A stretch of 64,000 bases of DNA from Bacteroidota bacterium (GTDB taxonomy: Bacteria > Bacteroidota > Bacteroidia > UKL13-3), in NCBI GenBank assembly GCA_046309355.1, contig JBKCPL010000062.1, positions 778 through 64,777 on the forward strand, in the 5' to 3' direction. A program made the translations under genes and the position numbers. The notes beneath the pieces are model-generated. The model was not told where the DNA came from, did not search any database, and worked only from the letters and a program-made list of their open reading frames with translations. Of this stretch, positions 15,529 to 61,300 are shown piece after piece; the stretch's first letter is position 1; every line of letters starts with the position of its first letter.

Positions 15529-18500
15529 ATGAAAACACAAGTACTTACATTTAAAAATCTGCTACTACTCATCGGTGCATTGCTGCTGAATATAGCAACA
15601 CAACGTATACAGGCACAAACTGTGTACTTTGCAGAAAACTTCGACTCTGCCTTCACAGGCACGCCTGCAGCCCCTCCGGGCTGGACACAAACGCGCATAC
15701 AGGCTGTTACCAGCGCAGCAGCGGAATTTGACTGGCTACAAAATGTTTGGCTGGGAACAACTTGGTCAAATTTAGGTACAGGAACAACACCGGCTACCGG
15801 TGCGGTAAACGGAACTGGTGTATTGTGGATAGACGATTATAATTTAGGTGGTACATCTATAGCACAAACTGAAAGACGCTTAGAGTCACCTTCATTTGAC
15901 CTGAGCACATCCACTTCACCTTACATGCGGTTTTGGTATTTCAACAGCGAAGGTAGCGGATTAGCACTCAACCTTCGTGTGGTTATATCTACTAATGGAG
16001 GTACTACTTGGCAAACACTATCAAACGTGCTTAATGGCTATGACAGTGTGACTAGCAGCTGGAATAGAATCAGTATACCTATTCCTGCCAAGTACAGAAC
16101 TACAAATGTAAAAATTGGATTTGCTATCGTAAATAGATGGGGATCTGCTAATCCATTTATTGACGCTGTAAGCGTAGAAGAATTTACCCCTACAATTATC
16201 ACCTCAGCCGCTTCCGGCAATTGGAATAGTGCAGCTACCTGGGGAGGAATAGTTCCGACTTCCAGTCATCACGTGGTTATTCAAAGTACTCACACGGTTA
16301 CTGTAGGCGCGGCTACGGGTATCGTTGCACGGTGTCAGGACTTAACCATCAACACAGGTGGAACACTTAATTACAGCACAACCGCTGCAAACAGCCTTCA
16401 TGTATACGGTAATGTTACTGTTAACGGTACGCTTAGCGCATTAAATGGTACTAGTGGAAGAATTATGGTAGTTGGTGGGAATTTTACCATTGCTACTGGT
16501 GGTGTAGCTACCTTTAATACCGGAGCTGGAACACAAGGCACAACAGCAGTATCTACAGCATTAACCAGTACCTCATCTACATTGGTATTAACAAACTCTG
16601 CACCGGCTTCATTTACCAATTCGGGTACTTTATCTGCCAGTACTAATCGCATTAATAATATAATACATTTAGGCAGTGACACATTTACCTATAACAACAC
16701 TGTGGTAGTACCCTTTACGTTAGCGTTAAGAAATGGCCCTGTAAATCCAAATGGATTTTTAACGATTGGAAATGCCGCATCTGCTACTACATTCAACACT
16801 GTACAACGAGTTAATGGCTTTTTTACAAGTGCACCTAACTTTAGCAATACGAATATTACCTCTCGTATAACAGCTTACCATCTTTCAAACACAGTAAGTG
16901 TTCAGCCTGAGCAGTTAACAGCCGGATTTGAAATTGAGGCTATCGCTGGTGTAAGAACGGTAACCGGCACATTGGTAATGAATACCCACGATAACGTACA
17001 GGTAAATTACCCATTAACCATAGGAACAGCAACTACAGGTGGTTTTACCTTAACCCGTGGTATACTAATCACAACGGATACTATTCGCTTAACTTCCTTT
17101 TTAACACCACCGACAGGCGTTGCACCCTCTACAGCAACACCATCAACTACACATGGCTCATACGTAGTAGGGGCGTTACGTATAGATATGCCTGCATCTA
17201 ACACCACCCGCACATTTGCTATGGGTGCAGGTACACTGTTTAATCAACTTACTCCAAATGGAAACATTCTCAAAAGCAGGTCTATCGCCCCAGGTGCATC
17301 TTGGACTGCAGGTACTTCAATAACCATGCGCTTGTTAACTGGTGCTACAGGTACTGTAAGCACCCCTGTGGTTTCACTACTGGGAAGTAATGTTACACAG
17401 ATTTCATTAAACAACGGTCCGGATGTACCCGGAACTACAACCATTACATTTAACGGAATTAACAATTACACATTGGGTGGAGGTGTTAACAGCGATAACT
17501 TATTTGGCAATGAAGACCAATTGCATCTGGTGCAGTCTCCTAATATTACAGGACCGTGGGCTACAGCATCGGCCGTTTCAGGAACAGCAATTCCTTTTGC
17601 AAACAATACCAACTACAGCAGAACGACCACAGCAACTGTTTCGCCTATTGCTACCAATGGAGGCTTTTTTACACTGGGCACGCAGGTAGGTCCTGTTGCT
17701 TATAACACGACTATATTAAACCGCAATACTGCACCACTTACTCCCGGAACAGCACAACCAAATGTACAGATGATGCGCGTGAATATTACAACAACAGGAG
17801 TAATACCCGGCATTAACGCAACGTCTTTCAGTATGAGTACAAACGGTTCCACAAATCTGAGTAACATTGTCAATGCAAAAGTCTATTTTACGGGAAGCGA
17901 TTCAAACTTTTCAGCCATCAACCAGTTTGGTACTACCTTCACATCTCCTAGTGGCCGATTCATTGTTTCGGGCACACGTCAGTTGTTAGCAGGCAATAAC
18001 TATTTCTGGATTACATATGATGTCCCAGCCACTGCTTCACTTGGCGACAGCCTTACCGTAAGTTGCGATACTATCGTTGTTGCAGGTACTCCATATAGCA
18101 TTACACAGCCTTCTCCGGGCTTCAGGGTATTCTCGCTGCCTATGACGTATGTGTCGTCAACAACAACGCATCCATTTACTAACCCGATTGAGAAGAATAC
18201 AAACTTCCACGTAATTATGCGTGCTGAAGTAGTAACTTCAGCAACAGGTTCTCCCATACCAGTTACTTCATTTGACTTAAACACAGGATCTACATCTAAT
18301 CCATTAACCAATATAGATAGTGTGATAGTATGGTATACCGGTACAAACGGATCATATACAACTCCGGTATTTTTTGGTGGAGCAGGGTCTGTTTCTGGTG
18401 CATTCACAGTATCTGGCTTTCAGAATTTGGCTAATAACTCCAATTATTTCTGGATTACTTACCGCCTCAAACCGGGAGCAAACGTAGGCGACTCGGTAGA

Positions 18501-21500
18501 CGTAGACTTGAACGGTATTATAGTGAGCAGCAGCACACAGGTTCCTTCGGTGACCTCACCTGCCGGCAGCAGAAGAATTAGAGGTGTGTATTGTGCTTCT
18601 GCAGCTACAAACACAGGCGATGAGGAAATATTCAATGTAAGTATTTCTACACTTAATAATTCATCTACATGTACCACGCTGGCACCTGGCCCCGGCTCAA
18701 TCACACAGCGCTATGCAAATTATACTACGCTGCCAGCTACAAATGTAGTAGCAGGACTATCCTATCCGCTTAGCGTGACCATTAACACGTGCGGAGGTTT
18801 TTACGGTGAAAAGTTAAATGCGTACATTGACTGGAATCAGGATGGTGACTTTGCCGATACACTGGAGACTGTAATGGATATAGCTTACGCTACCGGAACA
18901 GCGAATGCTGTTCGCACGCAAAATGTAACTGTTCCATGCTTTGCTATGGCGGGTACAACCATGATGCGCGTTGTTTATGTGGAGGACGTTAGCGCGCCTT
19001 CTTGTGGAACCTATACTTGGGGTGAAACGGAGGATTACACATTAAATGTATTGAATGTCCCTCCAGCATACACAGCATCTACTACCATTCAACAAACAGG
19101 TAGTACTTCAGCGGCTGCAACAAATGTGGCTATTTTACGTGTTCCGGTAAAAGTACTGTCCACTTCATGTCAACCCGGACAAATTACACAGCTCAATTTC
19201 AATACTGCAGGCACCACATCAACAGCTGATATCATAGCCGCGAAATTGTACAAAACAGGAAACAGTGGAGTTTTCAGTGTTTCCAATCTCATAGGTACAG
19301 TAACCGCACCTAGCGGAGCATTTGGTTTTAGTATAACGGATACTACAGTAAATGACACGAACAATTACTGGCTAGCTTACGATGTGTCGGGTACTGCACC
19401 TAACGCAAATGTGCTAGATGCACGATTTGACAGTGCGTTGGTTTTTGGCAACTGGTACACACCAGCCATTTCAGCACCCGCTGGCAATATTGTTATTGCT
19501 ACTCCGATGACATACTTATCATCCACATCATCACATCCAACTCTTTCTAAAATAGAACGTGGTACCACAAATAATCAAATGCTACGGATTCGGGTTATCA
19601 TGTCATCAACAGGTGCACCAGTATCATTAACACAGTTGAACCTGAGTGTTAATGGTTCATCCAATCCAACAACAAATATTGACAGTATCATGGTATGGTA
19701 TACCGGTAGTAATCCTAATTTTACTACGCCTACATTTTATGGAGGTACCGGAGCTCAGTCTGGTGCGTACAGTATTGCGGGTTTGCAAAGTTTGTTAAAT
19801 GACACCAATTACTTCTGGGTAACTTATCGTGTACCCGTAAGTGCGGTGGTAGGGGATTCGGTAGATGCCGAAATACAGACTCTGAATGTAGCAGGTACAC
19901 TGCAAACCCCATCTGTAACTGCACCGGCAGGTGCCCGCTTAATTCGCTCACCGTATTGTGCTGCCGGTGCAACAAGTACATTTGATGGCGAAATATGGAA
20001 TGTAACAGTAGGTTCGTTGAATAATACGTCTACATGTTTAACTACAGGTGGTCCCGGTTCAGTATTGGGAGGTTATTCTGATTACACTGCGGTAATAGCA
20101 CCAGTAAACTTGATTGTGGGAACCCAGGTTCCATTTTCAGTACATACAAGTACGTGCAATGGTAATTATACCGGGGTGTTGGGAATATGGATTGACTTTA
20201 ATGATGACGGAGACTTTACCGATCCGGGAGAGGAAGTACATATGTCACCCACTTTCACTTATGGAGCTACGGTATTCCGTACAGGTAATTTATCAATCCC
20301 TTGTGCTGCACCAGGTATTAAACGTATGAGGGTTACGTTGATGGAAACAACTATTACCCCAATTAGTCCTTGCGGTAGTTATGGCTATGGTGAAACGGAA
20401 GATTACACGGTAAATATTGTTTCGCTTCCACCAAGTTATACTTCGTCAACTACACTACAGCAAACCGGATCAACGTCTGCAGGCGCAACCAATATTCCCA
20501 TATTGAGAGTGCCGCTGAACGTTTTTGCAACAAGTTGCCAACCGGGAGTTATAACTCAGCTCAACTTTAATACTGCAGGTACTACATCTGCAGCGGACAT
20601 TGTAGCTGCCAAACTCTATAAAACAGGAAGTGCTAATACGTTCAGCGCATCCAATCTGGTTGGTACTGTTACATCACCAAGCGGTGCATTCAGTTTTTCA
20701 ATAACCGATACTGCTGTAAACGATTCCAATAACTACTGGCTCACGTATGATGTATCGGGTACAGCACCAAATGGAAATGTACTGGATGCACGTTTTGATA
20801 GTGCTCAGGTATTTGGCAGCTGGTATTTACCCATTGTTTCTAATCCAACAGGTAATGTTCTGGTATCGACTCCGATGGCATTTGTTTCAGCCACATCTAT
20901 TCATCCTACATTATCTAAAATAGAACGTGGAACAGCTAATAATCAGATGTTAAGAGTTCGCGTGATTATGTCATCAACGGGTGCTCCGGTACTGGCTACT
21001 CAACTGAATTTAAGCGTAGCGGGTTCTGCAAATCCGACTACCAATATTGACAGTATCATCGTTTGGTATACCGGATCAAATCCGAGTTTTGTATCCCCTG
21101 TATTCTTTGGTTCTACAGGAACTCAATCGGGTGCGTATACAATAACCGGTACTCGAAACTTACTGAACGACACAAACTATTTCTGGGTAACATACAGAGT
21201 TCCATCGGGAGCCACTGTAGGTGACTCCGTAGATGCAGAAATTGCAGACATTACAGTAGCGGGTATTCCTCAGGTTCCTGGTGTAACTGCACCAGCAGGT
21301 GCACGAACCATTCGTGGTGCGTATTGTCCATCAGTAGCGGGTACTACGGCTGATGGTGAAATCTGGAATGTAACTGTCGGTTCATTAAATAATTCCTCGA
21401 CTTGTACAACCACAGGTGGAACTGGTTCAACACTAAATTCATATTCGAATTACACAACTACAATAGCGGCTCCCCAATTCGCTGCGGGTGCTTATATACC

Positions 21501-23175
21501 TTTCTCTGTGAATACGAGTACATGTGGTGGCGATTACCCTGGAGTACTTGGTATTTGGATTGACTTTAACGATGATGGCGACTTTACCGATGCCGGTGAA
21601 GAGGTACATATGACACCAGTGTTTACTTATGGAACTGCTGTATTCCGTACTGGAGATATTGTTATCCCTTTAACAGCTAGTCCTGGATTGAAAAGAATGC
21701 GTGTAACACTGATTGAAACCGGTACAAGTCCGATAACTCCATGTCAGACTTATTTCTATGGTGAAACGGAAGACTATACGGTTGAAATTATGCCGGCACC
21801 TGCTCCAACTACTTATGTATGGAATCAGACCACTCCGGGATCATTTAGTACAGCAACGAACTGGACTCCGGGTCGTGTTGCACCAAATTTGAATGACCGT
21901 CTCATTTTCAGTGGTGGTGGTTCTGCAACAGTAAATGATTTAGTTAACCATAGTGTAAAGAATATTACGATTTCGAACAACACAACCGTGAATATGAATG
22001 CATCGGTAACTGCAACATTTAATGCCTGGGATACATTGGCACTTACTTCAGGTAAAGCCGTTACTGGTTTGAATGTAAATTTATCAATGGGCAGTAGAAA
22101 CGGTGTGGGTACACTAACCGGGTCAGGAACAGTTGAAGGGACCTTTACCCGCTGGGCTGACTTAGGATTGAGTACCTATTCCTTCCCATTGTCTCACACT
22201 AACCTTAGCAGAAATGTGGATATAACATTTAATGGCGCGCCTGCAACCACAGGAACAATTACAGCTACATTTGTGCCCGGTTTGCCCGGTACTACCGGTT
22301 TACCATTCAACGATGGATTGATTAACGTGAACAGAGTGGCCGAAAATGGATACTGGAATTTAACCAGTGGTAATGGATTAACATTCGGAACTGCTACTAA
22401 TTATAACCTGGCACTAACAGCCAACGGATTTAATGGTGTAGTAACCTTGGCTACATTAACGGTAGCCAGAAGGGTTAACAATACCAGCCCATGGGATACA
22501 GCAGGTACTTATGCAGCAGCTACCGGTACCAATGCCACACCTGTGGCTAATCGCTCTAACCTGCGCGTACTTGGCGATTTCACATTGGGTGGAGATTCCG
22601 CTACCAATCCGCTTCCAGTAAATTTGGTAAATCTTCAGGCCAGTTCAATAGGCGAAGATGTATTGGTAACTTGGACAACTGCCAGCGAATTAAACAATAA
22701 GGGCTTCATTGTTGAAAAATCAATGAATGGCGTTGACTTCGAAAGTATCGGATTTGTAAACGGAAAGGGTACAACAAATATTCAGGTAAACTATCAGTTG
22801 TTGGATGAAAAAGCCTTCGCAGTTGTTAATACAGTATACTACAGACTGCGTCAGGTTGATATGGATGGAACAGAACATCTGAGTAACATTGTACGTGCAA
22901 CCAAAACCGAACGCAGTATTGCTTCGACTACAGTAGCGCCTAATCCTTTCAATGGAATCACTCATCTGAATATTGTATCTGCTGAACAAGGAGAATACAC
23001 CATAACAATTTCCGACATTCAAGGTAAAACCATAGGTACTCGAGTGGTAAATGCCATAAAAGGCCTGAACACTATCAGCCTGACTGAAATGCAGCAGGCA
23101 GGTGCAGGAGTTTACTTCATACGAGTTTTAGGTACTGAAAGTACTACCATTAAAGTGGTAAAATCTGCTGAATAA
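15529..23175 (+). CDS. giant T9SS-secreted surface protein with repeated beta-sandwich modules and 3 GEVED-type domains
   Basis: 2548 aa with a signal peptide. It has three YC...WIDFNDDGDFTD...GETEDYT domains at about 18586-19050, 19954-20420 and 21313-21790, and repeated ...NYFWxTY... modules. The C-terminal T9SS CTD occupies 22933-23172 (GVYFIRVLGTESTTIKVVKSAE). Confidence 0.85.
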   Translation: MKTQVLTFKNLLLLIGALLLNIATQRIQAQTVYFAENFDSAFTGTPAAPPGWTQTRIQAVTSAAAEFDWLQNVWLGTTWSNLGTGTTPATGAVNGTGVLWIDDYNLGGTSIAQTERRLESPSFDLSTSTSPYMRFWYFNSEGSGLALNLRVVISTNGGTTWQTLSNVLNGYDSVTSSWNRISIPIPAKYRTTNVKIGFAIVNRWGSANPFIDAVSVEEFTPTIITSAASGNWNSAATWGGIVPTSSHHVVIQSTHTVTVGAATGIVARCQDLTINTGGTLNYSTTAANSLHVYGNVTVNGTLSALNGTSGRIMVVGGNFTIATGGVATFNTGAGTQGTTAVSTALTSTSSTLVLTNSAPASFTNSGTLSASTNRINNIIHLGSDTFTYNNTVVVPFTLALRNGPVNPNGFLTIGNAASATTFNTVQRVNGFFTSAPNFSNTNITSRITAYHLSNTVSVQPEQLTAGFEIEAIAGVRTVTGTLVMNTHDNVQVNYPLTIGTATTGGFTLTRGILITTDTIRLTSFLTPPTGVAPSTATPSTTHGSYVVGALRIDMPASNTTRTFAMGAGTLFNQLTPNGNILKSRSIAPGASWTAGTSITMRLLTGATGTVSTPVVSLLGSNVTQISLNNGPDVPGTTTITFNGINNYTLGGGVNSDNLFGNEDQLHLVQSPNITGPWATASAVSGTAIPFANNTNYSRTTTATVSPIATNGGFFTLGTQVGPVAYNTTILNRNTAPLTPGTAQPNVQMMRVNITTTGVIPGINATSFSMSTNGSTNLSNIVNAKVYFTGSDSNFSAINQFGTTFTSPSGRFIVSGTRQLLAGNNYFWITYDVPATASLGDSLTVSCDTIVVAGTPYSITQPSPGFRVFSLPMTYVSSTTTHPFTNPIEKNTNFHVIMRAEVVTSATGSPIPVTSFDLNTGSTSNPLTNIDSVIVWYTGTNGSYTTPVFFGGAGSVSGAFTVSGFQNLANNSNYFWITYRLKPGANVGDSVDVDLNGIIVSSSTQVPSVTSPAGSRRIRGVYCASAATNTGDEEIFNVSISTLNNSSTCTTLAPGPGSITQRYANYTTLPATNVVAGLSYPLSVTINTCGGFYGEKLNAYIDWNQDGDFADTLETVMDIAYATGTANAVRTQNVTVPCFAMAGTTMMRVVYVEDVSAPSCGTYTWGETEDYTLNVLNVPPAYTASTTIQQTGSTSAAATNVAILRVPVKVLSTSCQPGQITQLNFNTAGTTSTADIIAAKLYKTGNSGVFSVSNLIGTVTAPSGAFGFSITDTTVNDTNNYWLAYDVSGTAPNANVLDARFDSALVFGNWYTPAISAPAGNIVIATPMTYLSSTSSHPTLSKIERGTTNNQMLRIRVIMSSTGAPVSLTQLNLSVNGSSNPTTNIDSIMVWYTGSNPNFTTPTFYGGTGAQSGAYSIAGLQSLLNDTNYFWVTYRVPVSAVVGDSVDAEIQTLNVAGTLQTPSVTAPAGARLIRSPYCAAGATSTFDGEIWNVTVGSLNNTSTCLTTGGPGSVLGGYSDYTAVIAPVNLIVGTQVPFSVHTSTCNGNYTGVLGIWIDFNDDGDFTDPGEEVHMSPTFTYGATVFRTGNLSIPCAAPGIKRMRVTLMETTITPISPCGSYGYGETEDYTVNIVSLPPSYTSSTTLQQTGSTSAGATNIPILRVPLNVFATSCQPGVITQLNFNTAGTTSAADIVAAKLYKTGSANTFSASNLVGTVTSPSGAFSFSITDTAVNDSNNYWLTYDVSGTAPNGNVLDARFDSAQVFGSWYLPIVSNPTGNVLVSTPMAFVSATSIHPTLSKIERGTANNQMLRVRVIMSSTGAPVLATQLNLSVAGSANPTTNIDSIIVWYTGSNPSFVSPVFFGSTGTQSGAYTITGTRNLLNDTNYFWVTYRVPSGATVGDSVDAEIADITVAGIPQVPGVTAPAGARTIRGAYCPSVAGTTADGEIWNVTVGSLNNSSTCTTTGGTGSTLNSYSNYTTTIAAPQFAAGAYIPFSVNTSTCGGDYPGVLGIWIDFNDDGDFTDAGEEVHMTPVFTYGTAVFRTGDIVIPLTASPGLKRMRVTLIETGTSPITPCQTYFYGETEDYTVEIMPAPAPTTYVWNQTTPGSFSTATNWTPGRVAPNLNDRLIFSGGGSATVNDLVNHSVKNITISNNTTVNMNASVTATFNAWDTLALTSGKAVTGLNVNLSMGSRNGVGTLTGSGTVEGTFTRWADLGLSTYSFPLSHTNLSRNVDITFNGAPATTGTITATFVPGLPGTTGLPFNDGLINVNRVAENGYWNLTSGNGLTFGTATNYNLALTANGFNGVVTLATLTVARRVNNTSPWDTAGTYAAATGTNATPVANRSNLRVLGDFTLGGDSATNPLPVNLVNLQASSIGEDVLVTWTTASELNNKGFIVEKSMNGVDFESIGFVNGKGTTNIQVNYQLLDEKAFAVVNTVYYRLRQVDMDGTEHLSNIVRATKTERSIASTTVAPNPFNGITHLNIVSAEQGEYTITISDIQGKTIGTRVVNAIKGLNTISLTEMQQAGAGVYFIRVLGTESTTIKVVKSAE

Positions 23176-23314: not shown

Positions 23315-26300
23315 ATGCACCCTTTTACATTTGTCAAATACATGAACACCGGAATAAAAATTCTTTTTACAGTTATCTTATTATCGTTCGGATTAAAACC
23401 TGTAGAAGCACAGGTATACCTAGCCGAAAGTTTTGAGAATGCATTCACTGGCAATCCTGCTGCGCCTGCAGGTTGGAGTCAATCACGAATACGCCCTGTT
23501 GTTACATCGGCCGAAAGAGACTGGGTACGTAATACTTTTAGTGTAGGGGCGTGGGCAATTACTGGTGGAACCTTGCCACCAAGTCCCGGAGCATTTCATG
23601 GAAACTCAGTATTGTTTTTACAAGATATCGGATTCGGTGGTGCAGCTTCACCGCTAACAGAACGTAGAATTTCATCGCCCGCTATGAATCTTAGTACAGC
23701 CACATCTCCATACGTGCGTTTCTACCTGTTCTACCCTCAGGATCCTTGTTTGAATATAAACCTTCGCGTGGTTATTTCACCTGATAACGGAACTACATGG
23801 CATACGTTATCCAATATTATGAGTGGCTTAAACACAACCACTTCTCCCAACCAATGGGCAAAAATCAATGTTCCTATACCTGCAAGATATCGTACAACAC
23901 AAACGCGTGTAGGTTTTGCCACAGTTAACCGAAACGGAGCAAATAATATTTTTATTGACTCTGTATCCGTTTTAGAATACACCCCTACAACCATTACTAG
24001 TGCTGCCAGCGGCAACTGGAATTTGCCTGCAAACTGGGTTGGTGGAGTTGTGCCTACATCTGATCATAATGTAGTTATTAGCAGCGGTCATACCATTACT
24101 GTAACTGTTGGACTGGCTAGTGGGGGTGTGCGTTGTCAGAATTTAACAATTAACTCCGGGGGTACGTTAACATACGGTGCAAACGGCAGTCAGCTGCTTC
24201 AGGTATTTGGCGATGTTACAGTATCAGGAACGTTATCTGCATTAAATGCTACCAACGGACGTATTTTGTATGTAGGTAAAAACTTTACTATCAATACAGG
24301 AGGTGTTGCAACTTTTAATACAGGTAATTCAACATTGGGAACATCTGCACCATTAGCTAACTTGCCGTTGAACACCTCGGGTATCGTATTTTGTAATAGT
24401 GATTCGGCAACATTCACCAACGCAGGAACATTAGCAGGTAGTCGGGTAAACAACATCTGGCATTTGGGGTCGAATGATGCGGTATTCCGCTATAATGATT
24501 CGGTTAGTGTACCCTTAACATTTACTTTGATAAACGGAAGAGTTGATGCAAATAGCAGACTAACGCTAGGTAACGCTGCTGTTGCTAATACAGTAAATTA
24601 TGTGTGGCGCACTAATGGTAGTTTTACATCAGCACCGGTATTTAATAATACAAACATAAACATACGCTGGATGCTATATCTGTCGGTATTTCAAAGTACT
24701 GTAACCCCTACCACACTCATAGCTGGTGAAGAACATCGAAATAATTCAGGGCGGGTAATTGAAGGTTATCTGACTATGAATACCCATAACAATGTAGAGT
24801 TGCAATACCCACTTTCATTTAGTGCTTTACATACTCCGTTTCTTCAACTGCAGCGTGGGATCTTACTAACCAGTCAGGCAAATCCGCTTATATTTTCTAG
24901 CAATTATGCAGGCACCACGGCATTGGCACCTAGTACAATTAATCCTAACCCCACCAATCATGGATCGTATGTAGTGGGCAGTATTCAAATAAACAGACCA
25001 ACAACAGGAAATCTTCAGGTATCGTTGCCATTTGGTATTGGATCAGCATTTAACGGGATTGCACCTAATGGTAATCAAGCACGTACCATAACTATTAATC
25101 CCGGTACTAACTGGAATGGAGAATCATTCTTATGCACATATAGTTCGGGCAATGCTACAAGCCGCAACGTAACAGGCAACCTAACAACTACAATGAGTAA
25201 CAAAATGTTGCGGATACAACCCTTGAATGGTGACTTACCCACAAACACTGTAGTATCCCTGACTGCCATCAATTATCCATTTGGCAACAGCGATAGTTTA
25301 GTGGGCCAACAAGGTCAGATGTTTGTGGTGCAGGGTAACTCCCCAAATGGTCCTTGGGTGCAGCGTTCATCTACGAATGGATTGGTATCGCCCTTTGTAA
25401 GCAATACGTTATACACATTGAATACGGCAGCAACCAGTCCCGGACCCATATCTCCCCTTTCATCCAATGGTCAGTACTTTCGATTTGCCACCTCAGCACC
25501 TGTAATGCAATATACAAGCAGTTCGGCTCAGCGGGTTACAGGAAATGTATCTGTCGGTACGGCTAATATGCCTATGCTTCGAATACGTGTTGACATTTCC
25601 GGAATTGTACCCATCAATATCACAGGACTAAATCTTTCAACTGCCGGAACATCAAATACAGCTGCTATTGCAAATGTTAAAGTGTTTTACACGGGTACAG
25701 ATTCTACATTCAACACACTTTTACCATTTGGAAATCCCGTTGCAACTCCTTCGGGAGCATTTACTGTAAGTGGTAATAGTCAGTTACGCACCGGTGCCAA
25801 CTTTTTTTGGATTGCATACGATGTGGCAACTGGTGCTGCACAGGGCGATAGTCTTATTGTGCAGTGCAGCAGCGTTATAGTGGCCGATACCGCCCGAACA
25901 GTAACTATGCCGAATGCTTCTTTTCGAATAGTAGGTACATCCATGGCGTTTATTTCAGCTAATGCATTTCAAACTGTAACTTCAAAGGTATTTACCGGAT
26001 CATTCAACAATGAGATTCTGCGGTTAGAGGTACTTATGTCGGATACAGGTGCGCCTGTACCCATCACACAAATGCAATTCAGAACATTAGGCTCAGCCAA
26101 TCCTCTTACAAATATTACCACCGCAACAGTGTATTACACCGGTGGCAGTGCCGTGTTCTCTCCCAATATACCTTTAGGTAATTTTAGTTCCCCTAACGAT
26201 ACGTTTATTGTAAGCGGTCAGTTAAATTTGCGTAACGGGATGAATTATTTCTGGCTTGCGTACGATATAAGTAGCACTGCCAGCATTACTGACTCAGTTG

Positions 26301-29300
26301 ACGGAGTCTTCATATCCCTAGGCGTTAATGGAAATAACATCGCACCCATATCAACAACACCAGCCGGAAACCGTAAAATCAAAGCCCAATATTGTCTGCC
26401 TACTTATACGCTCGGATGTGCCAGTGATTTCATTTCTCGTGTCCGATTAGAAACTATTGATAATATTACAACCTGTAATTCGCAAGGTTTTTATACCTAC
26501 TTTTCAAGTATTACACCTCCTACATTACTAGCCGGAAGAACATACACACTCAAATTAAATTTTAACAGTGAACCCAATCAGTTTGCACGAGCATGGGCTG
26601 ACTGGAATGAAGATGGAGACTTTGTGGATTCAGGAGAAGACTTGGGTATTCAGACTCCTGCGAATGCAGGAACGGGTGGTATGGCTTCTATTACCTTCAC
26701 TGTACCTTGTACCGCAACAAATTCTGTTACACGTTTGCGAATTCGTGGGGGCGATGATGCTCAACCGCAGGCTAATCAATCCTGCGGAGCATCATCCAAT
26801 GCCTATGGCGAAGGTGAAGACTATGACATAAATGTAGTTAGCGGAAACAGAGAGCATCTTGGTAATACTGCACTTCAACAAACAGGTGGAGCACCGGCCT
26901 CTACATTAAATACAGCCATCCTGCGTGTACCTGTAAAAGTAAAAGTAACAAACTGCAACCCGGGTGTAATCAATGAATTTCGATTCCGCACCACTGGAAC
27001 AACCAATACAGCAGATATCCTAAATGCTAAACTTTACAAAACAGGTTCGTCACCTGTATTCTCTGTTGCAAATCTTTTAGGCACTGTTGCTAGCCCATCA
27101 GGTGTATTTAGTTTTGTAGTTAACGACTCAGCTGTAAACGACACCAATAACTATTGGTTAACGTATGACATTGCCTCGACAGCACCTAACGGCAATTTAC
27201 TGGACGCAGTACTCGACAGTGTACGTGTTTTTAACAGCTGGTTCATACCGGCAAATGGTAATCCATCCGGATCAAGGACTGTGGCTACGCCTATGTCATT
27301 TATAGGTGCAAGTGCTGTGCATCCTACACCTGATAGAGTGGAGAGGGGAAGCGCAAACAATCCGATGCTTCGCATGATGGTAAGAACAACAAGCTTTGGT
27401 GCACCGATTAATGCCACTCAATTTACCCTAAGCACAGCAGGCTCACAAAATACATTTTTCAATCTCGATAGTATAATAGTTTGGTATACCGGAAGCAACG
27501 CTGAATTCGAAAATCCGGTATTATTCGGAGGCGTAGGAATGCAAACAGGTACATTTACAGTGAGTGGTATTCAAAGCTTGAATAATGATACAAATTACTT
27601 TTGGGTTACCTATAACATTCCTCCTTTTGCCAGTATAGGCGATACAATGGATGCGGAGTTTATCAATGTTACGATAGGTGGTACTTTGCAAACAACTTCT
27701 TCCGGAAACCCTGCAGGTTTTCGAATCATTCGTGCAGCCTATTGTGCTGCAGAAGCAGCCGGAGGAACAGATGCTGAAATTGTAGGCACATACATAGGGC
27801 CATTATCCAACGCATCGAACTGCTCTACGACCGGTGGGCCAGGATCTATTCAAAATTCGTACAGCAATTTCACTCAAATACTACCCGCTACTACTTTCAT
27901 CATGGGCAAAACATATCCTTTTTCCATAAATACTTCTACATGTAACGGCAGTTTTGATGCGGTGTTGGGAATTTGGGTTGACCTGAATCAGGACGGTGAT
28001 TTTAACGATGCCGGAGAAGAACTTCATATGTCACCAGTGTTTGCATACGGGGCTAATGTTATTCGTACCGGTACCATTACCATACCGTGCACTGCATTAA
28101 GCGGACGAACCCGGCTGCGAGTAATCATGAATGAAACATCCAGTGGGCCTATATCTGCGTGCGGTAGTTATACCTTCGGTGAAACGGAGGACTATTTGAT
28201 TAATTTGGTTAATGTGCCTACGAGTTACATAAGTAGTACCGTATTTCAGCAAAGCGGTTCGGCACCGTTTGGTGGTGTAGATGTGCCCGTACTTCGGGTA
28301 CCTGTAGTAGCAAACGCCAATTCATGTCAGCCGGGCACAATCACCCGATTATTCTTTACTACCGCTGGAACTACAACTACTTCTGATATTCTGAGTGCAA
28401 AACTTTATAAAACAGGAAGCAGCGCTACATTTAATACCAACACATTGCTAGGAACAGTAACATCACCCTCCGGATTATTCAGCTTTTTGTTAACTGACAC
28501 TGTACTTGACGACACCAATAATTACTGGCTTGCATACGATGTGTCTCTAACAGCAACCGGAAGCAATCTACTGGATGCAACATGCGACAGCATACTTGCA
28601 TTCGGCTCGCGTTTCATTCCGGCTGTTACCAATCCTGCTGGTGCGCTTTCTGTAACTGCGCCTATGACGTTTGTTGATGCTAATGCCTTACATCCAACCC
28701 TGCAGGTTATAAACAGCCCGTCAGCCAATAACCAAATGTTACGAATTATGATTCGTATGTCGGCCACTGGTGCGCCTGTTCCTGTTTCTCAATTTAACTT
28801 GAGCACCAACGGTTCTCAAAATCCGCTTGTAAATGCCGATAGCATTATTGTTTGGTACACCGGTTCTGGTTCAGCATTCACCTCTCCTGTATTTTTTGGG
28901 GGTGTTGGTCCTCGAAGCGGTAATTTCTCTATTACTGGATTACAGCCGCTGTTGAATGATACAAACTATTTTTGGATAACATACCGAGTACCACAAACTG
29001 CTATAATTGGCGATTCACTGGATGCAGAGTTAATTAATATAGTCGTTAATGGTGTAATCAGAACACCAATTAACGGAGCTCCTGCCGGAAAACGAAGAAT
29101 TAAAAACAGCTATTGTATTCCGGTTATTACTACCGGGTGCGGATTTGATATACTTGATTTGGTTACCACTACCGGTGCTACTACCAATCTAACGAATTCT
29201 TCCACCGGTTGTAACGGCAATCCAAATTCCTATCAGTTTAATACCTCGCAAACTCTCGTCATTACACAAGGTGCAACATTTACCATAAACCTGCGAGCCG

Positions 29301-30928
29301 ATGGCGATATGGAAGGTTTGGCAGCATGGATTGATTACAATGATGACGGTGACTTTGACGATCCTGATGAATTCATCGCCACCTTTGCTCCCAGTATGGG
29401 TGTAGTGAATTCATCGCCTGTTACAGTACCGCTGCAAACGATTACAGGCATAACACTGCGTATGCGTGTTCGCGCTATCTTTAACACACTCATTGGTGCT
29501 TCACAATCGTGCACGGCAGTGCAGTGGGGTGAAACGGAAGATTTTCAGGTACAAATTTTACCTGCACCTACACCTACCACGTATGTTTGGAATCAAACAA
29601 CACCGGCTAACTTCAATACAGCTTCAAACTGGACACCGGCCAGAGCAGCTACTAATTTAAACGACCGACTTGTATTTAACTCGGGTGGTGTAGTAACAGT
29701 AAACACATTGCCCACGCAGCGTGTAGCAAGTCTCGAACTGCTTAATGGAACAACGCTGCAGTTGCAATCAACGTCACAAAACACATTGACTGCAACCGAT
29801 TCACTATACTTAACTTCGGGTAAAGTTGTTACAGATGCGAACACCAATATGTGCATCGGACGCAGAAATTTTGCCGGTGTACTAACCGGATCTGGATATG
29901 TGAACGGTATTTTAGTAAGATGGATAACAGGTACAGGCACCTACACGTTCCCGATTTATGACATGGATACTAACCGTCAGGTTACTGTGATCGTAACAGC
30001 AGCACCTACCGAGCCAGGCACTTTGGCCGCTCGTTTTGTTCGCGGACAACCGTCAACCAACGGGTTGCCATTAACAGATGGCAGTATTCTGGTGAATCGT
30101 GTGGCACAAAACGGTGTATGGCGCTTAACATCCGGGAATAATCTTGGATCGTTACAATATAATCTGACCGTTCGTGCAGATTCGTTTGCCGGTGTATACA
30201 ATGTTGCCGGTTTAAGTCTGTTGCGTAGAGACAATAATACTGCGGCATGGACAGTGAGCGGAAACTATGTAGCTGCTACCGGCAGTAGGTATACGCCACT
30301 GGTTAGTCGTACCAATCTTTCTAGTCTTGGTGAATTTACCTTGGGCAGCGATACTGCAATGAATCCGCTACCGGTTGAGTGGCTTAAATTTACAGGACAC
30401 GTTTCGCACACGCATGCGGTATTGCGATGGGCTACCGCTACCGAAAAAAATAACAGCCACTTTATTGTTCAACGTTCGGCAGATGCAGTAAACTTTACCA
30501 CCATAGGATACGTGAAAGGAAAAGGAAATTCGGTATCCGTGACTGATTATGAATATACGGATGACCAGGTTTTCACGCAAACACCATCTGCATACTACCG
30601 ACTGATACAAGAAGACCTAGACGGCACACAATCGTTTAGCAGAATTATTTATTTGACGGCCACACCACAAAACGAGCTATTACAGGTTATTCCCAATCCA
30701 TTCAACAAAGCACCTGATATGGTATTTAGCAGTGCAACGAATGAAACAGTTGCCGTGTTGATTACCGACATCAGCGGACGAACACTCGCCACACAAACTG
30801 TGTATGTGCAGGAAGGAATAAACCGCATACAAGTATCATCTGTAAGCACACTGCCCGCAGGCATTTATTTCATATCACTGAGTGGAGTTGAAAGCAGAAC
30901 CTGCAGGGTTATCAAACTTCACGATTAA
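23315..30928 (+). CDS. giant T9SS-secreted surface protein, tandem paralog of the upstream gene
   Basis: 2537 aa with the same architecture. The N-terminal domain aligns with gene A (VYLAESFENAFTGNPAAPAGWSQ... against VYFAENFDSAFTGTPAAPPGWTQ...). It has three GEVED-type domains at about 26391-26840, 27738-28215 and 29110-29560, and the CTD at 30686-30925. Confidence 0.85.
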   Translation: MHPFTFVKYMNTGIKILFTVILLSFGLKPVEAQVYLAESFENAFTGNPAAPAGWSQSRIRPVVTSAERDWVRNTFSVGAWAITGGTLPPSPGAFHGNSVLFLQDIGFGGAASPLTERRISSPAMNLSTATSPYVRFYLFYPQDPCLNINLRVVISPDNGTTWHTLSNIMSGLNTTTSPNQWAKINVPIPARYRTTQTRVGFATVNRNGANNIFIDSVSVLEYTPTTITSAASGNWNLPANWVGGVVPTSDHNVVISSGHTITVTVGLASGGVRCQNLTINSGGTLTYGANGSQLLQVFGDVTVSGTLSALNATNGRILYVGKNFTINTGGVATFNTGNSTLGTSAPLANLPLNTSGIVFCNSDSATFTNAGTLAGSRVNNIWHLGSNDAVFRYNDSVSVPLTFTLINGRVDANSRLTLGNAAVANTVNYVWRTNGSFTSAPVFNNTNINIRWMLYLSVFQSTVTPTTLIAGEEHRNNSGRVIEGYLTMNTHNNVELQYPLSFSALHTPFLQLQRGILLTSQANPLIFSSNYAGTTALAPSTINPNPTNHGSYVVGSIQINRPTTGNLQVSLPFGIGSAFNGIAPNGNQARTITINPGTNWNGESFLCTYSSGNATSRNVTGNLTTTMSNKMLRIQPLNGDLPTNTVVSLTAINYPFGNSDSLVGQQGQMFVVQGNSPNGPWVQRSSTNGLVSPFVSNTLYTLNTAATSPGPISPLSSNGQYFRFATSAPVMQYTSSSAQRVTGNVSVGTANMPMLRIRVDISGIVPINITGLNLSTAGTSNTAAIANVKVFYTGTDSTFNTLLPFGNPVATPSGAFTVSGNSQLRTGANFFWIAYDVATGAAQGDSLIVQCSSVIVADTARTVTMPNASFRIVGTSMAFISANAFQTVTSKVFTGSFNNEILRLEVLMSDTGAPVPITQMQFRTLGSANPLTNITTATVYYTGGSAVFSPNIPLGNFSSPNDTFIVSGQLNLRNGMNYFWLAYDISSTASITDSVDGVFISLGVNGNNIAPISTTPAGNRKIKAQYCLPTYTLGCASDFISRVRLETIDNITTCNSQGFYTYFSSITPPTLLAGRTYTLKLNFNSEPNQFARAWADWNEDGDFVDSGEDLGIQTPANAGTGGMASITFTVPCTATNSVTRLRIRGGDDAQPQANQSCGASSNAYGEGEDYDINVVSGNREHLGNTALQQTGGAPASTLNTAILRVPVKVKVTNCNPGVINEFRFRTTGTTNTADILNAKLYKTGSSPVFSVANLLGTVASPSGVFSFVVNDSAVNDTNNYWLTYDIASTAPNGNLLDAVLDSVRVFNSWFIPANGNPSGSRTVATPMSFIGASAVHPTPDRVERGSANNPMLRMMVRTTSFGAPINATQFTLSTAGSQNTFFNLDSIIVWYTGSNAEFENPVLFGGVGMQTGTFTVSGIQSLNNDTNYFWVTYNIPPFASIGDTMDAEFINVTIGGTLQTTSSGNPAGFRIIRAAYCAAEAAGGTDAEIVGTYIGPLSNASNCSTTGGPGSIQNSYSNFTQILPATTFIMGKTYPFSINTSTCNGSFDAVLGIWVDLNQDGDFNDAGEELHMSPVFAYGANVIRTGTITIPCTALSGRTRLRVIMNETSSGPISACGSYTFGETEDYLINLVNVPTSYISSTVFQQSGSAPFGGVDVPVLRVPVVANANSCQPGTITRLFFTTAGTTTTSDILSAKLYKTGSSATFNTNTLLGTVTSPSGLFSFLLTDTVLDDTNNYWLAYDVSLTATGSNLLDATCDSILAFGSRFIPAVTNPAGALSVTAPMTFVDANALHPTLQVINSPSANNQMLRIMIRMSATGAPVPVSQFNLSTNGSQNPLVNADSIIVWYTGSGSAFTSPVFFGGVGPRSGNFSITGLQPLLNDTNYFWITYRVPQTAIIGDSLDAELINIVVNGVIRTPINGAPAGKRRIKNSYCIPVITTGCGFDILDLVTTTGATTNLTNSSTGCNGNPNSYQFNTSQTLVITQGATFTINLRADGDMEGLAAWIDYNDDGDFDDPDEFIATFAPSMGVVNSSPVTVPLQTITGITLRMRVRAIFNTLIGASQSCTAVQWGETEDFQVQILPAPTPTTYVWNQTTPANFNTASNWTPARAATNLNDRLVFNSGGVVTVNTLPTQRVASLELLNGTTLQLQSTSQNTLTATDSLYLTSGKVVTDANTNMCIGRRNFAGVLTGSGYVNGILVRWITGTGTYTFPIYDMDTNRQVTVIVTAAPTEPGTLAARFVRGQPSTNGLPLTDGSILVNRVAQNGVWRLTSGNNLGSLQYNLTVRADSFAGVYNVAGLSLLRRDNNTAAWTVSGNYVAATGSRYTPLVSRTNLSSLGEFTLGSDTAMNPLPVEWLKFTGHVSHTHAVLRWATATEKNNSHFIVQRSADAVNFTTIGYVKGKGNSVSVTDYEYTDDQVFTQTPSAYYRLIQEDLDGTQSFSRIIYLTATPQNELLQVIPNPFNKAPDMVFSSATNETVAVLITDISGRTLATQTVYVQEGINRIQVSSVSTLPAGIYFISLSGVESRTCRVIKLHD

Positions 30929-35700: not shown

Positions 35701-36439
35701 TACCGTTAATGACATACATCTATTCAGAAGAGGAAATGGTAACGGGGGCGGATGGACACTATATCAAAATCCGGCATCTGCCATAAGCACCAGTCCTCAA
35801 TCAGCTACATTTAAATTTACAGCGGCTTCACAATTCCGTTTTCAATTCAATGTTGCCGGAAATAACAACCCATTGCCAGTGAGTATGGGTCAGCTTATGG
35901 GAAGAGCCACCGCATTGAATGCTGAACTAAACTGGGAAGTATACAGCGAATTGAACAATAAAGGATTTGAAATAGAACGTTCGCTGGATGGTGTGGTGTT
36001 CGAAAAAATTGGATTTGTAAACGGTAGAATGAACAGCAATGAACCTACACTGTATACGTTTATTGATGAAGGTATTTTTGCCAAAGCAGGAGTGGTAGGT
36101 TACTACCGCATTCGTCAGGTAGATGCAGATGGTACATGGTCTGATTACAGCAATACTGTTCGCATTGCAGGTGGCGCCACAGCCATACACTCCGTGTCTG
36201 TCATTCCTAATCCATTCCATGACCTGACACAAGTAAGTATTGATTTGATGCAATCCGGTTCAGTAGAAATTCAGTTGCTAGATATAAATGGCAAATTGTT
36301 ACAGTCCAATCATTACCTGCTGGCTGACGGGCTGCAAACGTTGCCGGTACGGGCTGATAACCTGCAAGCCGGTATTTACCTGCTGAAGGTAAAAAAAGCT
36401 GATGAAACGGTCACACTGAAGGTTGTTAAATCAAACTAA
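32786..36439 (+). CDS. large T9SS-secreted protein with LamG/concanavalin-like domain
   Basis: 1217 aa with signal peptide MEKKVLLRLVLAMLTLAVSQYTNAQ. A LamG-like block (LNFDGADDHIVVANNP...LSIEAWINP...YRLFINTTGNLVF...WTHVAATFDGANLRLYVNGD) is present. The pre-CTD module and the CTD occupy 35867-36436. Confidence 0.8.
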   Translation: MEKKVLLRLVLAMLTLAVSQYTNAQLTTNYPASNHIVVTGTPYTDLGTTGSIISTLNTDDALSSAVPIGFSFTFNGASYTEFILSTNGFIKMGNVAPSSAALFYAGPQSSGAGTGGAANSTNTLDTALIIPFNHDLIGASGAEYRVSTTGSVGSRICTIQFKNLTEKNTTIAIQYAIINFQIKLYEGTNVIDFVWGPFTASTNTSAFRSALCGLKGSGATATNLLTVTKGSVTAWNLPTFQNGNYTGNALNYGNNVGSTRPLPVAGTIYRFIPVYANDIAVRQVYTLGKMPKAYTSPHFVRAAIRNSGTSASTGFYIKLQVTGANPFIDSLLVTGMNPNVDTIVTFAGHSPTTNGYDTVRVFVDPDDNSFNNSRISIRDVNNVIYSYADPSVPSAGGVGFTGASGDFVAKFPYSGVINAINQVGVNFNTGGNTLRIGIWNRNTGTGLPGTLLWQSSPFVTIAGLNTIPVNPPVAISDTFFVGVIQIGTVNAAFSFQNENPIRNQTFYYTSPTGTSSWIDFFATASAFRFMIEPRLQSPDDMGVTDILYPCPVLPAGQPAIIPSVRIFNYGALAQTAVKIKCAIFNATGNRVYIDSTTTGTVNSGNYSIINFTDTFSTFTPGNYTIKSWSELIGDGSLVNDTATSLLTITNIPNIKSAGTFLNFDGADDHIVVANNPSISPAAELSIEAWINPTNFITNRTIVSKDSAGLNRSYRLFINTTGNLVFTVNTSSGLATAVSSTIIPTASWTHVAATFDGANLRLYVNGDTAGASIQIGTINSSTTGLYVGKNGPSVNELWVGGIDELKIWNIALTESEIRRRMHTRLPNLASTNLRLYFRFDEGLNNPILSDASGNCNSGTTVNMDVQNSTTAPAVFISTIPIGTPAVVDTLIGGSGTYVLTGGALNMNFFNYLGSENYVLHKFDTVYSTLPTVNPGGVTASTPLTWILYRYGLATYDSIYASFLLGPGYILGTGTVNDIHLFRRGNGNGGGWTLYQNPASAISTSPQSATFKFTAASQFRFQFNVAGNNNPLPVSMGQLMGRATALNAELNWEVYSELNNKGFEIERSLDGVVFEKIGFVNGRMNSNEPTLYTFIDEGIFAKAGVVGYYRIRQVDADGTWSDYSNTVRIAGGATAIHSVSVIPNPFHDLTQVSIDLMQSGSVEIQLLDINGKLLQSNHYLLADGLQTLPVRADNLQAGIYLLKVKKADETVTLKVVKSN

Positions 36440-58368: not shown

Positions 58369-61300
58369 TTAGTTGGTTTTAACCACTTTCAGGGTTGTGC
58401 TTTCTGTACCGTTGAGTCGCACAAAGTATATTCCACCTTTCAGTTTATCCAACTCATCCATAGCTATACGGTTCATACCTTTTTCAATCAGAACTTCGCG
58501 AGTGCTAATTACTCTGCCCTGAATATCGGTAATCGTCAATGTATAGTCTGCATCTTGCAGGCTTACAACTTCTACCTGAAGTCCGGTGTTGAATGGATTT
58601 GGATATGCTTTAACCGATGTCACGGCTCTGGTATCGCGGTTTACACTAACCACTGAGCTTAAGGTTTCAGTTCCGTCAAAGTCAATCTGACGCAGGCGAT
58701 AGTACAATGTGTTGGCCTGAGCAACAGCAAATGCTCCTTCATCCAACAATTCATAATTAACACGTACCACGCTGTATTCTTTACCATTTACAAACTTGAT
58801 TTCAGTAAAGTTCTCACCGTCAGCCGAACGCTCAACGCTGAATCCACGGTTATTTTGTTCGCTAGCAGTGGTCCAGGTCAGCAGTACATCTTCATTCAAT
58901 CCTTTGCCCTCAAATGCTATCAGGTTAACAGGTAGAGCTGTTGCTAAACTATCCCCTACTGTAAAGAAGCTTAAGCTGCTTACACCTGATATACTGCGAG
59001 AGTAAGGATCTGTACCGGTTGCTGCTCCAAACGATGTACCTACGTATGTCCACTTGCTGTTTGCTGTGTTATAACGCGAAACAGCTGATTGTGTACGGTT
59101 GAATCCACCCACTTCTTCTGCCGAATTCCAAGTAAGCGTAATCGTAGCGTTAGAACCACCTGCTACTGATTCGCTGATTGCCCATGTACGGTCAACCATG
59201 CTGGTAGCCAATGGCAATCCTGAGTTTCCGTTAACCAATACTCCGTTAAACACGCGTACCGATATTACATCTGTTGTTGAAGAACCATTCAGCTGTACCT
59301 GAGCCGGGGTAAATGATGTGAGTGAACCTACAGGGTAAGATACGTTGGTAGAATTATTCTGAACTGTTCTGTTTAATGAACCGATACCATTAGTTTTTAC
59401 ATAGTTTGTAGAGCTGGCATTTACTATTGAACCGGTTGAACCTATGGTCAGGTTATTGGCACCTAAACGTACTGAACCTGTAATAAATTCAAGATGTCTG
59501 TTCACGGTAAGGCTGGTATTCAGAATCAAATCGCCTGATCCAAGGTTAACTAGTACAGTATCTACGTTGCTTATAAGATTACCAGTATTCTGATTTCCTG
59601 TCAAGGCACTGTATTCTACTCTTGCTCCAGCATTGATAGTACGTGCACCGTTTACTTGTATATTACCAGTAATACCGGCTACTTCCAGGCCTTGAGGTGA
59701 TCCTACAATAAGGCGTGAACCTGATTGCGCAGTAAAGCTTCCGATACCCGAGAGTACTTCAGTACCGAAATTAATAGTACCACCGGTTTGTATTACAGTG
59801 TTTCCAAGAGCTGTTAGAGTACCACCTAAAGTAGCTACACCCGTTCCTGTAACGGTAATGGTATTGTAAGTACCCGATACTGTAGCGGCTGTTGAAACCA
59901 CCAAATCGGCAATTACCGTGTAAGGAGTTACAGATGTATCAGCACCTGAAGGCGTAACCACAATAATATTACCTGTGGTTGTTCCTGTAGCTACTACTGC
60001 TGTAATCTGAGATGAACTATTTACAGTGTAAGATGCTGCAGCAGTTCCGTTAAACGATACTGCAGTTGCACCTGTAAAGTTAGATCCTGTAATAACTACA
60101 GTTGATCCTACACCACCTGAACTTGGACTGAAACCGCTAATAGTTGGCGGCAAGGTAACAGTGAAGTTAGTACCGCTTGTGCCGGTTCCGGAACCATTAA
60201 CTACAGTTATTGCACCTGTAGATGCACCCGCTGGTACGGTAGCAGTTATGGTGGTTGTACTGTTTACTGTGAAAGATGAATTTACTCCATTAAATCTCAC
60301 ATTTGTTACTGCATTGAAATCTGTACCTGTAATAGTTACTGTAGTACCGGCAGGTCCTGTAGACGGTGTAAACGAGCTTACAGTTGGTGCTGGGAAAACT
60401 GTATACGGTGAGGATGACTCCACACTATCTGTACCATTGGTGACACGTATATTTCCTGTGGTTGCACCAGCAGGAACTGTCGTGTTAATGGTGGTATTAT
60501 TTACTACAGTAAATGCGGCATTCTGACCATTGAATCTAACACCTGTTGCCCATGTAAATCCAGTTCCTGTTATAGTTACAGCCGAACCGAATGTGCCTGA
60601 TGTAGGCGAGAACGAAGCAATGGTTGGAGCCGGTATTACTGTGAAATTAAATGCACTGGTTCCTGTACCAAATGAATTGGTAATTTGTATAGGACCTGTG
60701 GTTGCACCGGCAGGAACCGTAGTAGTAATGATAGTATCATTAACTACGGTGTAAACCGTTTGAGCCACACCATTGAAACTGATTGCACTTGCACCTGTAA
60801 ACAGTGTACCTCTGATTGTTACTGCAGCTCCTATTGATGCAGCAGATGGTGATACAACTGTAATAGTTGGAGGAGCAGCCAATTCGGTTCCGGTAAATGT
60901 TATAAATGAACCGGTAGATGAAAGACCGCCTACCGATGCTATTCCGGTAGAAGAATTAGAGGTAGTGGTAAACTGAGTTGTCCAAGCTGTAGGTACGGCC
61001 ACATCCGAAGTAGCCAGACGAATGTTATTCGCATTAATCGTTGTTCCAAGGGTAGCCGCATCGAAGTTGTAAACCAGTCCATAGTTATAGGGTGTAGTAC
61101 CACCGCTGATATCGGCACGTATGTAACAATTATTAAAGTTACCTGCCGGTGAAGATGGAGGATTTACACCTGTAAAGTCATATACTGTAGCACTGGTAGG
61201 TGCTGATGTTCCCCAGTTAATGGATGCAACCGGACGGTTGGCGAAAGTATACACTGTAGTTGTGTTGGAAGCGGGTGCTGCAGATGCTGTAGCCGCTATA

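Follow-up and report, generated by a model that had tools for sequence, protein, structure and literature searches.

Type IX secretion system (T9SS) cargo proteins in which an immunoglobulin-like or fibronectin type III (FN3) domain stands ahead of the C-terminal sorting domain (CTD) have been described before. In the protease RgpB of Porphyromonas gingivalis, an Ig-fold domain (IgSF; PDB 5AG8) lies immediately upstream of the type A CTD and stays on the mature protein once the CTD has been removed (PMC4804311, PMC11285876); secretion depends on a CTD residue in contact with that domain and is blocked by the A719R substitution (PMC11285876). In cytophagalysin CPL1 of Cytophaga, a candidate T9SS cargo from the Cytophagia, the predicted structure has a canonical FNIII-type domain of 95 residues, D9, directly before the CTD-like D10 (PMC11674741). 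Here we analyse a stretch of 64,000 nucleotides from a member of the Bacteroidota (contig JBKCPL010000062.1 of assembly GCA_046309355.1, positions 778 to 64,777; hereafter the window), in which each of four large proteins, A to D, carries one copy of a module directly upstream of a Por_Secre_tail CTD. The order of domains is the one predicted for cytophagalysin, with whose D9 the module is compared by description only. It shares with the RgpB IgSF domain its place before a type A CTD, but no sequence relationship between the two was detected in a profile search of all PDB chain sequences, which returned nothing better than E = 2, and whereas the RgpB domain is protease-specific and its contact with the CTD is needed for secretion, the module is known from sequence and predicted structure and represents an FN3-type subfamily common to many unrelated cargoes. 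Neither the FN3 fold nor the general architecture, an Ig-like or FN3 domain ahead of a sorting signal, is new. The novelty lies in a large FN3 subfamily missed by current models, which is paired near-obligately and at a fixed distance with type A CTDs and is more strongly conserved than the CTD itself. In the searchable literature we found no prior description of this subfamily and of its pairing with the CTD.

When the window is translated in six frames, a profile built from the four copies matches only these four (E 1e-50 to 1e-54; runner-up at E 0.056), and both this search and the translations place them where a first, sequence-only reading of the window had located them. Pairwise identity among the copies is 34–57%, and when aligned with MAFFT they are invariant in 25 columns, among them W23, E28, N30, N31, F34, S39, Y78-Y79-R80, Q83, D85, D87-G88-T89 and S93; these columns reproduce both motif blocks quoted in that reading (TW.TASE.NNKGF.VE(K/R)S.DG..F..IGFVNG.G and YYRLRQ.D.DGT...S). 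Two of its details need amendment. The NPLPV start given for all copies is not that of copy D, which begins TALPV, and although the interval of about 108 residues does contain the module, the fold itself takes up residues 1–99, a linker of about 5 residues follows, and the last 5 or so residues already form strand 1 of the CTD.

The module, left unnamed at first and pointed out for comparison with Pfam, PDB and TIGRFAM, matches no model of Pfam or NCBIfam and, as stated above, no PDB sequence; its fold, however, is a known one. When the four window copies were compared by hhalign with 20 repeats from proteins in which Pfam recognises fn3 at E 1e-45 to 1e-193, the two sets aligned at 97.3% probability (E 2.4e-11), with an insertion of about seven residues between strands C' and E in the window type. 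An AlphaFold2 model of the module alone (predicted local distance difference test, pLDDT, 93.9) is a seven-strand sandwich, and the best fold matches of this predicted model in a Foldseek search of the PDB include the FN3 modules 5g56, 4u49, 1va9, 1x5z, 3mpc and 2ic2, at template modelling (TM) scores of about 0.55–0.60. Hallmark residues of FN3 are present and are invariant or nearly so, namely W23 in strand B and the tyrosine corner Y78-Y79-R80-L81 in strand F. Profile comparison and structure prediction thus both indicate a divergent FN3 domain, a beta-sandwich some 99 residues long and homologous to bacterial FN3 domains. Pfam fn3 (PF00041) matches none of 25 subfamily members, even at E ≤ 1, and P0163, a close relative, is the only one to pass its cut-off (26.7 vs 25 bits); as judged from these profiles, the module belongs at the level of the FN3 superfamily, outside the Pfam fn3 family as now modelled. 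Bacterial FN3 domains of long repeat proteins (the PF00041 class with the pattern W-x-D-x-S-x-x-E-x-G-F-x-V-E-R-S ... Y-x-Y-R-V-x-A) are likewise seven-strand sandwiches, and they have in common with the module the strand-B tryptophan, the E..GF.VERS.DG block, the YYR tyrosine corner of strand F and the capacity to occur in tandem arrays. They differ from it in length (about 90 residues, as against about 100 with the C'-E insertion) and in sequence, the module having a PLPV-type A strand and YYRL(R/K)QvDxDG where generic repeats have YxYRVxAxNxxG. Unlike generic FN3, moreover, the module was encountered, in the samples examined, only in Bacteroidota and Ignavibacteria and at a fixed distance before a type A CTD.

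The module is a fold unit distinct from the CTD, as had been supposed. The CTD models PF18962 and TIGR04183, which span 72–75 positions, align end to end (positions 1–71/72) with only the last ~78 residues of the proteins and leave the module wholly upstream, and an AlphaFold model of module plus CTD (pLDDT 92.4; predicted TM score, pTM, 0.77) consists of two separate seven-strand beta-sandwiches with about 5 linker residues between them. The CTD is itself an Ig-like seven-strand C-terminal sandwich, but a separate one that adjoins the module. It had been conceded from the outset that the module might instead be the N-terminal half of one long CTD of about 190 residues, a single sorting domain, and the module does always accompany a CTD in the module-bearing window proteins A to D. 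This alternative is refuted by the coverage of the CTD models, by the two independent sandwiches of the AlphaFold2 model, by the homology of the module to free-standing FN3 repeats, and by the existence of both CTDs without the module and tandem arrays of the module, and we assign it next to no probability.

The window-type module is found almost always directly before a CTD and at fixed spacing. We picked 80 loci from species-representative genomes solely by the module motif [YF]YRL[RK]Q[VIE]Dx[DN]; all 80 have a single module copy, and 78 have an intact 3' end. A tail of 65–110 residues follows the module in 76 of these 78 complete genes, and 75 of the 76 tails are recognised by a narrow CTD profile. 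From the F-strand YYRL to the PNP motif of the CTD the distance has a median of 34 residues and an interquartile range (IQR) of 33–35 (70 loci), while the linker itself shows no sequence conservation. Generic FN3 copies that precede CTDs have a highly variable spacing, with a median of 134 (IQR 34–195) in a small, regex-based sample of 11. Mean pairwise identity across the 80 loci is 43% for the module vs 21.5% for the adjacent CTD, so that the module is about twice as conserved as the domain that it precedes. The identities of the module and of the CTD are correlated (Mantel r 0.29; 0 of 999 permutations); for either domain the pair A–D has the highest value and the pair B–C the lowest.

The sequence-only reading had held that the module is tied to the sorting signal and precedes the CTD in all four large secreted proteins of the window; the latter is correct, and the motif-selected genes bear out the former, but a fifth CTD protein of the window lacks the module, and internal copies of tandem arrays in relatives have no CTD beside them. 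Neither the FN3-like module nor any other Pfam domain was found in this fifth protein, and among neighbouring CTD open reading frames (ORFs) in the fetched loci, nine evaluable ones are without a module and about four have one. CTDs without the module are thus common and evidently do not require it, and the notion of the module as a necessary part of the signal has to be given up. The fifth protein provides an internal control within the window, a CTD that has no need of the module.

Of 1.84 billion cluster representatives searched exhaustively with the profile, 135,648 match at E ≤ 1e-3 and, at the stricter E ≤ 1e-10, 100,920, with up to 30 tandem copies per protein among the top matches. The matches fall into two classes: generic bacterial FN3 repeats score <50 bits per copy, whereas the window-type subfamily scores higher, at ≥50 bits per copy. 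Repeat proteins annotated as fn3 score 30–40 bits per copy with the module profile; the generic repeats match Pfam fn3 at E 1e-45 to 1e-193, bear the NCBI protein name 'fibronectin type III domain-containing', and occur also in phyla without a T9SS, such as Planctomycetota (Humisphaera) and Omnitrophota. Among the best 150 of the 135,648 representatives, 56 are window-type, with 2–9 copies each, and 94 are generic. A CTD ends 50 of the 56 window-type proteins vs 29 of the 94 generic ones, and three of the six window-type proteins without a terminal CTD stop at or within 5 residues of the last copy. In multi-copy proteins, the copy next to the CTD scores on average 11 bits above the internal copies (higher in 29 of 47, p = 0.01), and by this measure it appears only mildly specialised relative to them.

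We favor the hypothesis that the FN3 module, a short linker of constrained length and the type A CTD together form a C-terminal cassette of about 190 residues in which the module is probably a pedestal or adaptor rigidly coupled to the CTD. Most likely, that is, it acts as a structural pedestal and is no new kind of element. Under this hypothesis the cargo would be exported by Sec (proteins A, B and C have Sec signal peptides) and would then fold in the periplasm, the CTD would be recognised by the T9SS, and after translocation a PorU-type sortase would cut the CTD off in or near the short linker. Removal of the CTD by such a sortase is reported to be established for cargo of P. gingivalis and Prevotella intermedia (PMC4560394, PMC11969387). 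The mature protein would then end in the FN3 module, which, close to the membrane, would be a pedestal or spacer. As long as the CTD is still attached, the module would be a standard, well-folded adaptor: packed against the CTD, it would present both the CTD and the cleavage linker uniformly, whatever the upstream cargo. Additional copies in relatives would lengthen the stalk, and the tandem window-type arrays argue for such a function; module and CTD may have been duplicated or shuffled together as one cassette. A functional contact between the two domains has only indirect support, from the predicted joint model (pTM 0.77), the 5-residue linker and the fixed spacing; the contact in RgpB is a precedent for it, and cytophagalysin one for the order of the domains.

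The same features could be read differently. The FN3 module might be recognised by part of the T9SS, for instance by a PorV-type shuttle or by the PorU/PorZ attachment complex, in which case the functional sorting or attachment signal would extend over about 190 residues and the module would set the efficiency or the fate (anchored vs released) of a subclass of type A cargo. We consider this unlikely, even though the subfamily is 97% CTD-adjacent at fixed spacing, is more conserved than the CTD, has its slightly better-scoring copies next to the CTD, and conserves the polar residues N30, N31, Q83, D85, D87 and G88 beyond the generic FN3 core. Many CTD proteins, both in the window and in neighbouring genes, do without the module, window-type copies occupy internal tandem positions with no adjoining CTD, and FN3 topology would put the subfamily-specific residues in the BC and FG loops, at the pole away from the CTD. 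In its strongest form, the proposal is that environmental Bacteroidota and Ignavibacteria use a bipartite cassette of about 190 residues whose FN3 half is read by a dedicated PorV-like shuttle or by PorU/PorZ. This would explain why the module is conserved above the CTD and held at a fixed distance from it, and we nevertheless think it improbable; that the effective signal is bipartite is a testable but unproven possibility.

Ligand binding has to be weighed against the pedestal hypothesis as well. The domain could bind a polysaccharide or cell-surface glycan in the manner of a carbohydrate-binding module (CBM) or adhesin, and so keep the protein on the surface of the producer or on its substrate: FN3 modules from glycoside hydrolases and pectate lyase rank among its best structural matches, its conserved polar loop residues could form a binding site, and 5 of the 25 subfamily members show partial, sub-threshold matches to F5_F8_type_C_2, a galactose-binding-like family (best E 0.0011). 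Such a role seems doubtful to us. No CBM or lectin family model gave a significant match, only partial, sub-threshold ones to PF22633 and PF00754 in at most 5 of the 25 members and at best at E 0.0011, and nothing passes any curated cut-off. The F5_F8_type_C_2 model also cross-matches ordinary FN3 repeats, the conserved aromatics are those of the canonical FN3 core (the strand-B W and the strand-F YYR tyrosine corner), and the N-terminal domains of the host proteins are very different from one another (GEVED/BNR_assoc_N, LamG/CARDB, TIG). Ordinary bacterial FN3 repeats (P0138, P0122, P0218, P0146, P0213) draw partial matches to PF22633, Pur_ac_phosph_N, Ig_J_second, Ig_Rha78A_N, Glyco_hydro_39_C and even CtsR. 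Since these models match ordinary FN3 repeats, weak matches of this kind on the module carry no functional meaning.

T9SS cargo is now predicted and engineered from the CTD of about 75 residues alone, and a large subclass of cargo from soil and freshwater Bacteroidota and from Ignavibacteria carries a conserved FN3-type domain fixed before it. Because this domain is unmodelled in Pfam and NCBIfam, the annotation of thousands of proteins goes no further than 'T9SS type A sorting domain-containing' or 'hypothetical', and a dedicated profile would improve both annotation and the calling of domain boundaries. The cassette also offers an experimental handle on whether sequence upstream of the CTD affects secretion, cleavage or anchoring, a question so far touched only for RgpB. 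If the domain is only a pedestal, this is ordinary domain architecture; were the signal bipartite, the FN3 half would decide the geometry of cleavage or the fate of the cargo, surface-anchored or released.

The host proteins in the window (Table 1) support the view that the module is not protein-specific. In BLASTP comparisons, A and B resemble C, and C resembles D, only over the last ~188–200 residues, that is, over module and CTD. A and B are adjacent tandem paralogues, 45% identical over ~2540 residues, and this pair excepted, the cassette is, as far as sequence similarity reveals, essentially the sole part common to the four proteins. The tandem duplication of a 7.6-kb gene is itself worthy of note. 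Between A/B and D, similarity reaches some 50–75 residues further upstream of the module (A 2312–2359 vs D 1640–1687), which suggests that these proteins have part of a further common domain ahead of the cassette, without a counterpart in protein C.

Table 1. Coordinates in the window of the module copies, the adjoining CTDs and the genes that encode them
Feature	Coordinates	Strand	Remarks
Module copy A	22606..22932	+	FN3-like fold 22606-22902; linker about 22903-22917; end is CTD strand 1
Module copy B	30362..30685	+	Translation, profile match, alignment
Module copy C	35867..36199	+	Translation, profile match, alignment
Module copy D	58615..58938	-	Translation, profile match, alignment
Type A T9SS CTD of protein A	22933..23172	+	PF18962 and TIGR04183 matches
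Type A CTD of protein B	30686..30925	+	PF18962 and TIGR04183 matches
Type A CTD of protein C	36200..36436	+	PF18962 and TIGR04183 matches
Type A CTD of protein D	58372..58614	-	PF18962 and TIGR04183 matches
Protein A gene	15529-23175	+	2548 aa; signal peptide; GEVED x3, BNR_assoc_N x4
Protein B gene	23315-30928	+	2537 aa; full-length paralogue of A; GEVED x3, BNR_assoc_N x4
Protein C gene	32786-36439	+	1217 aa; CARDB and Laminin_G_3 domains
Protein D gene	stop codon 58369-58371; start beyond window end	-	at least 1876 aa; TIG/IPT repeats
Extra A/B-D similarity, in A	about 22462-22605	+	
Extra A/B-D similarity, in D	about 58939-59080	-	
Fifth T9SS cargo candidate	8737-10038	-	433 aa; Por_Secre_tail E 5.6e-14; without module

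The window matches a contig of a metagenome-assembled genome (MAG; GCA_046301595.1), and genes for an identical protein C are present on 22 contigs of NCBI, JGI and ENA assemblies, which indicates that the source organism recurs in several public assemblies. The organisms of the motif-selected loci are Bacteroidota (Hymenobacter, Dyadobacter, Pontibacter, Chitinophagaceae, Saprospiraceae, Flavobacteriales and others), Ignavibacteria, and a few oddly named MAGs. Typical cargo genes with the FN3-like module and a CTD occur in MAGs titled Comamonas sp., Janthinobacterium lividum, Methylacidiphilales and Nomurabacteria (loci L001, L011, L044, L062, L020 and L079), and these genes point to mislabelled or contaminated bins rather than to T9SS cargo in those taxa.

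Apparent stand-alone proteins consisting of module and CTD appear to be fragments or to have mis-called starts. Most of the short ones that were inspected begin in the middle of a domain and therefore look like one or the other; in Hymenobacter humi (JBHTEK010000001.1; L085 4261-6573), a deposited 190-residue 'T9SS type A sorting domain-containing protein' (P0012) makes up the C-terminus of an unbroken 770-residue ORF that has a signal peptide. Finally, a different recurrent pre-CTD architecture is seen in the generic-FN3 T9SS proteins P0094, P0137, P0165, P0206 and P0219: their last FN3 repeat is followed by a domain of about 150 residues that has the pattern A.DG...T.W.S......W..V.L......V.I.W....A..Y.IQ.S.DG..W and is similar to an F5/8 type C discoidin domain, and the CTD comes after it.

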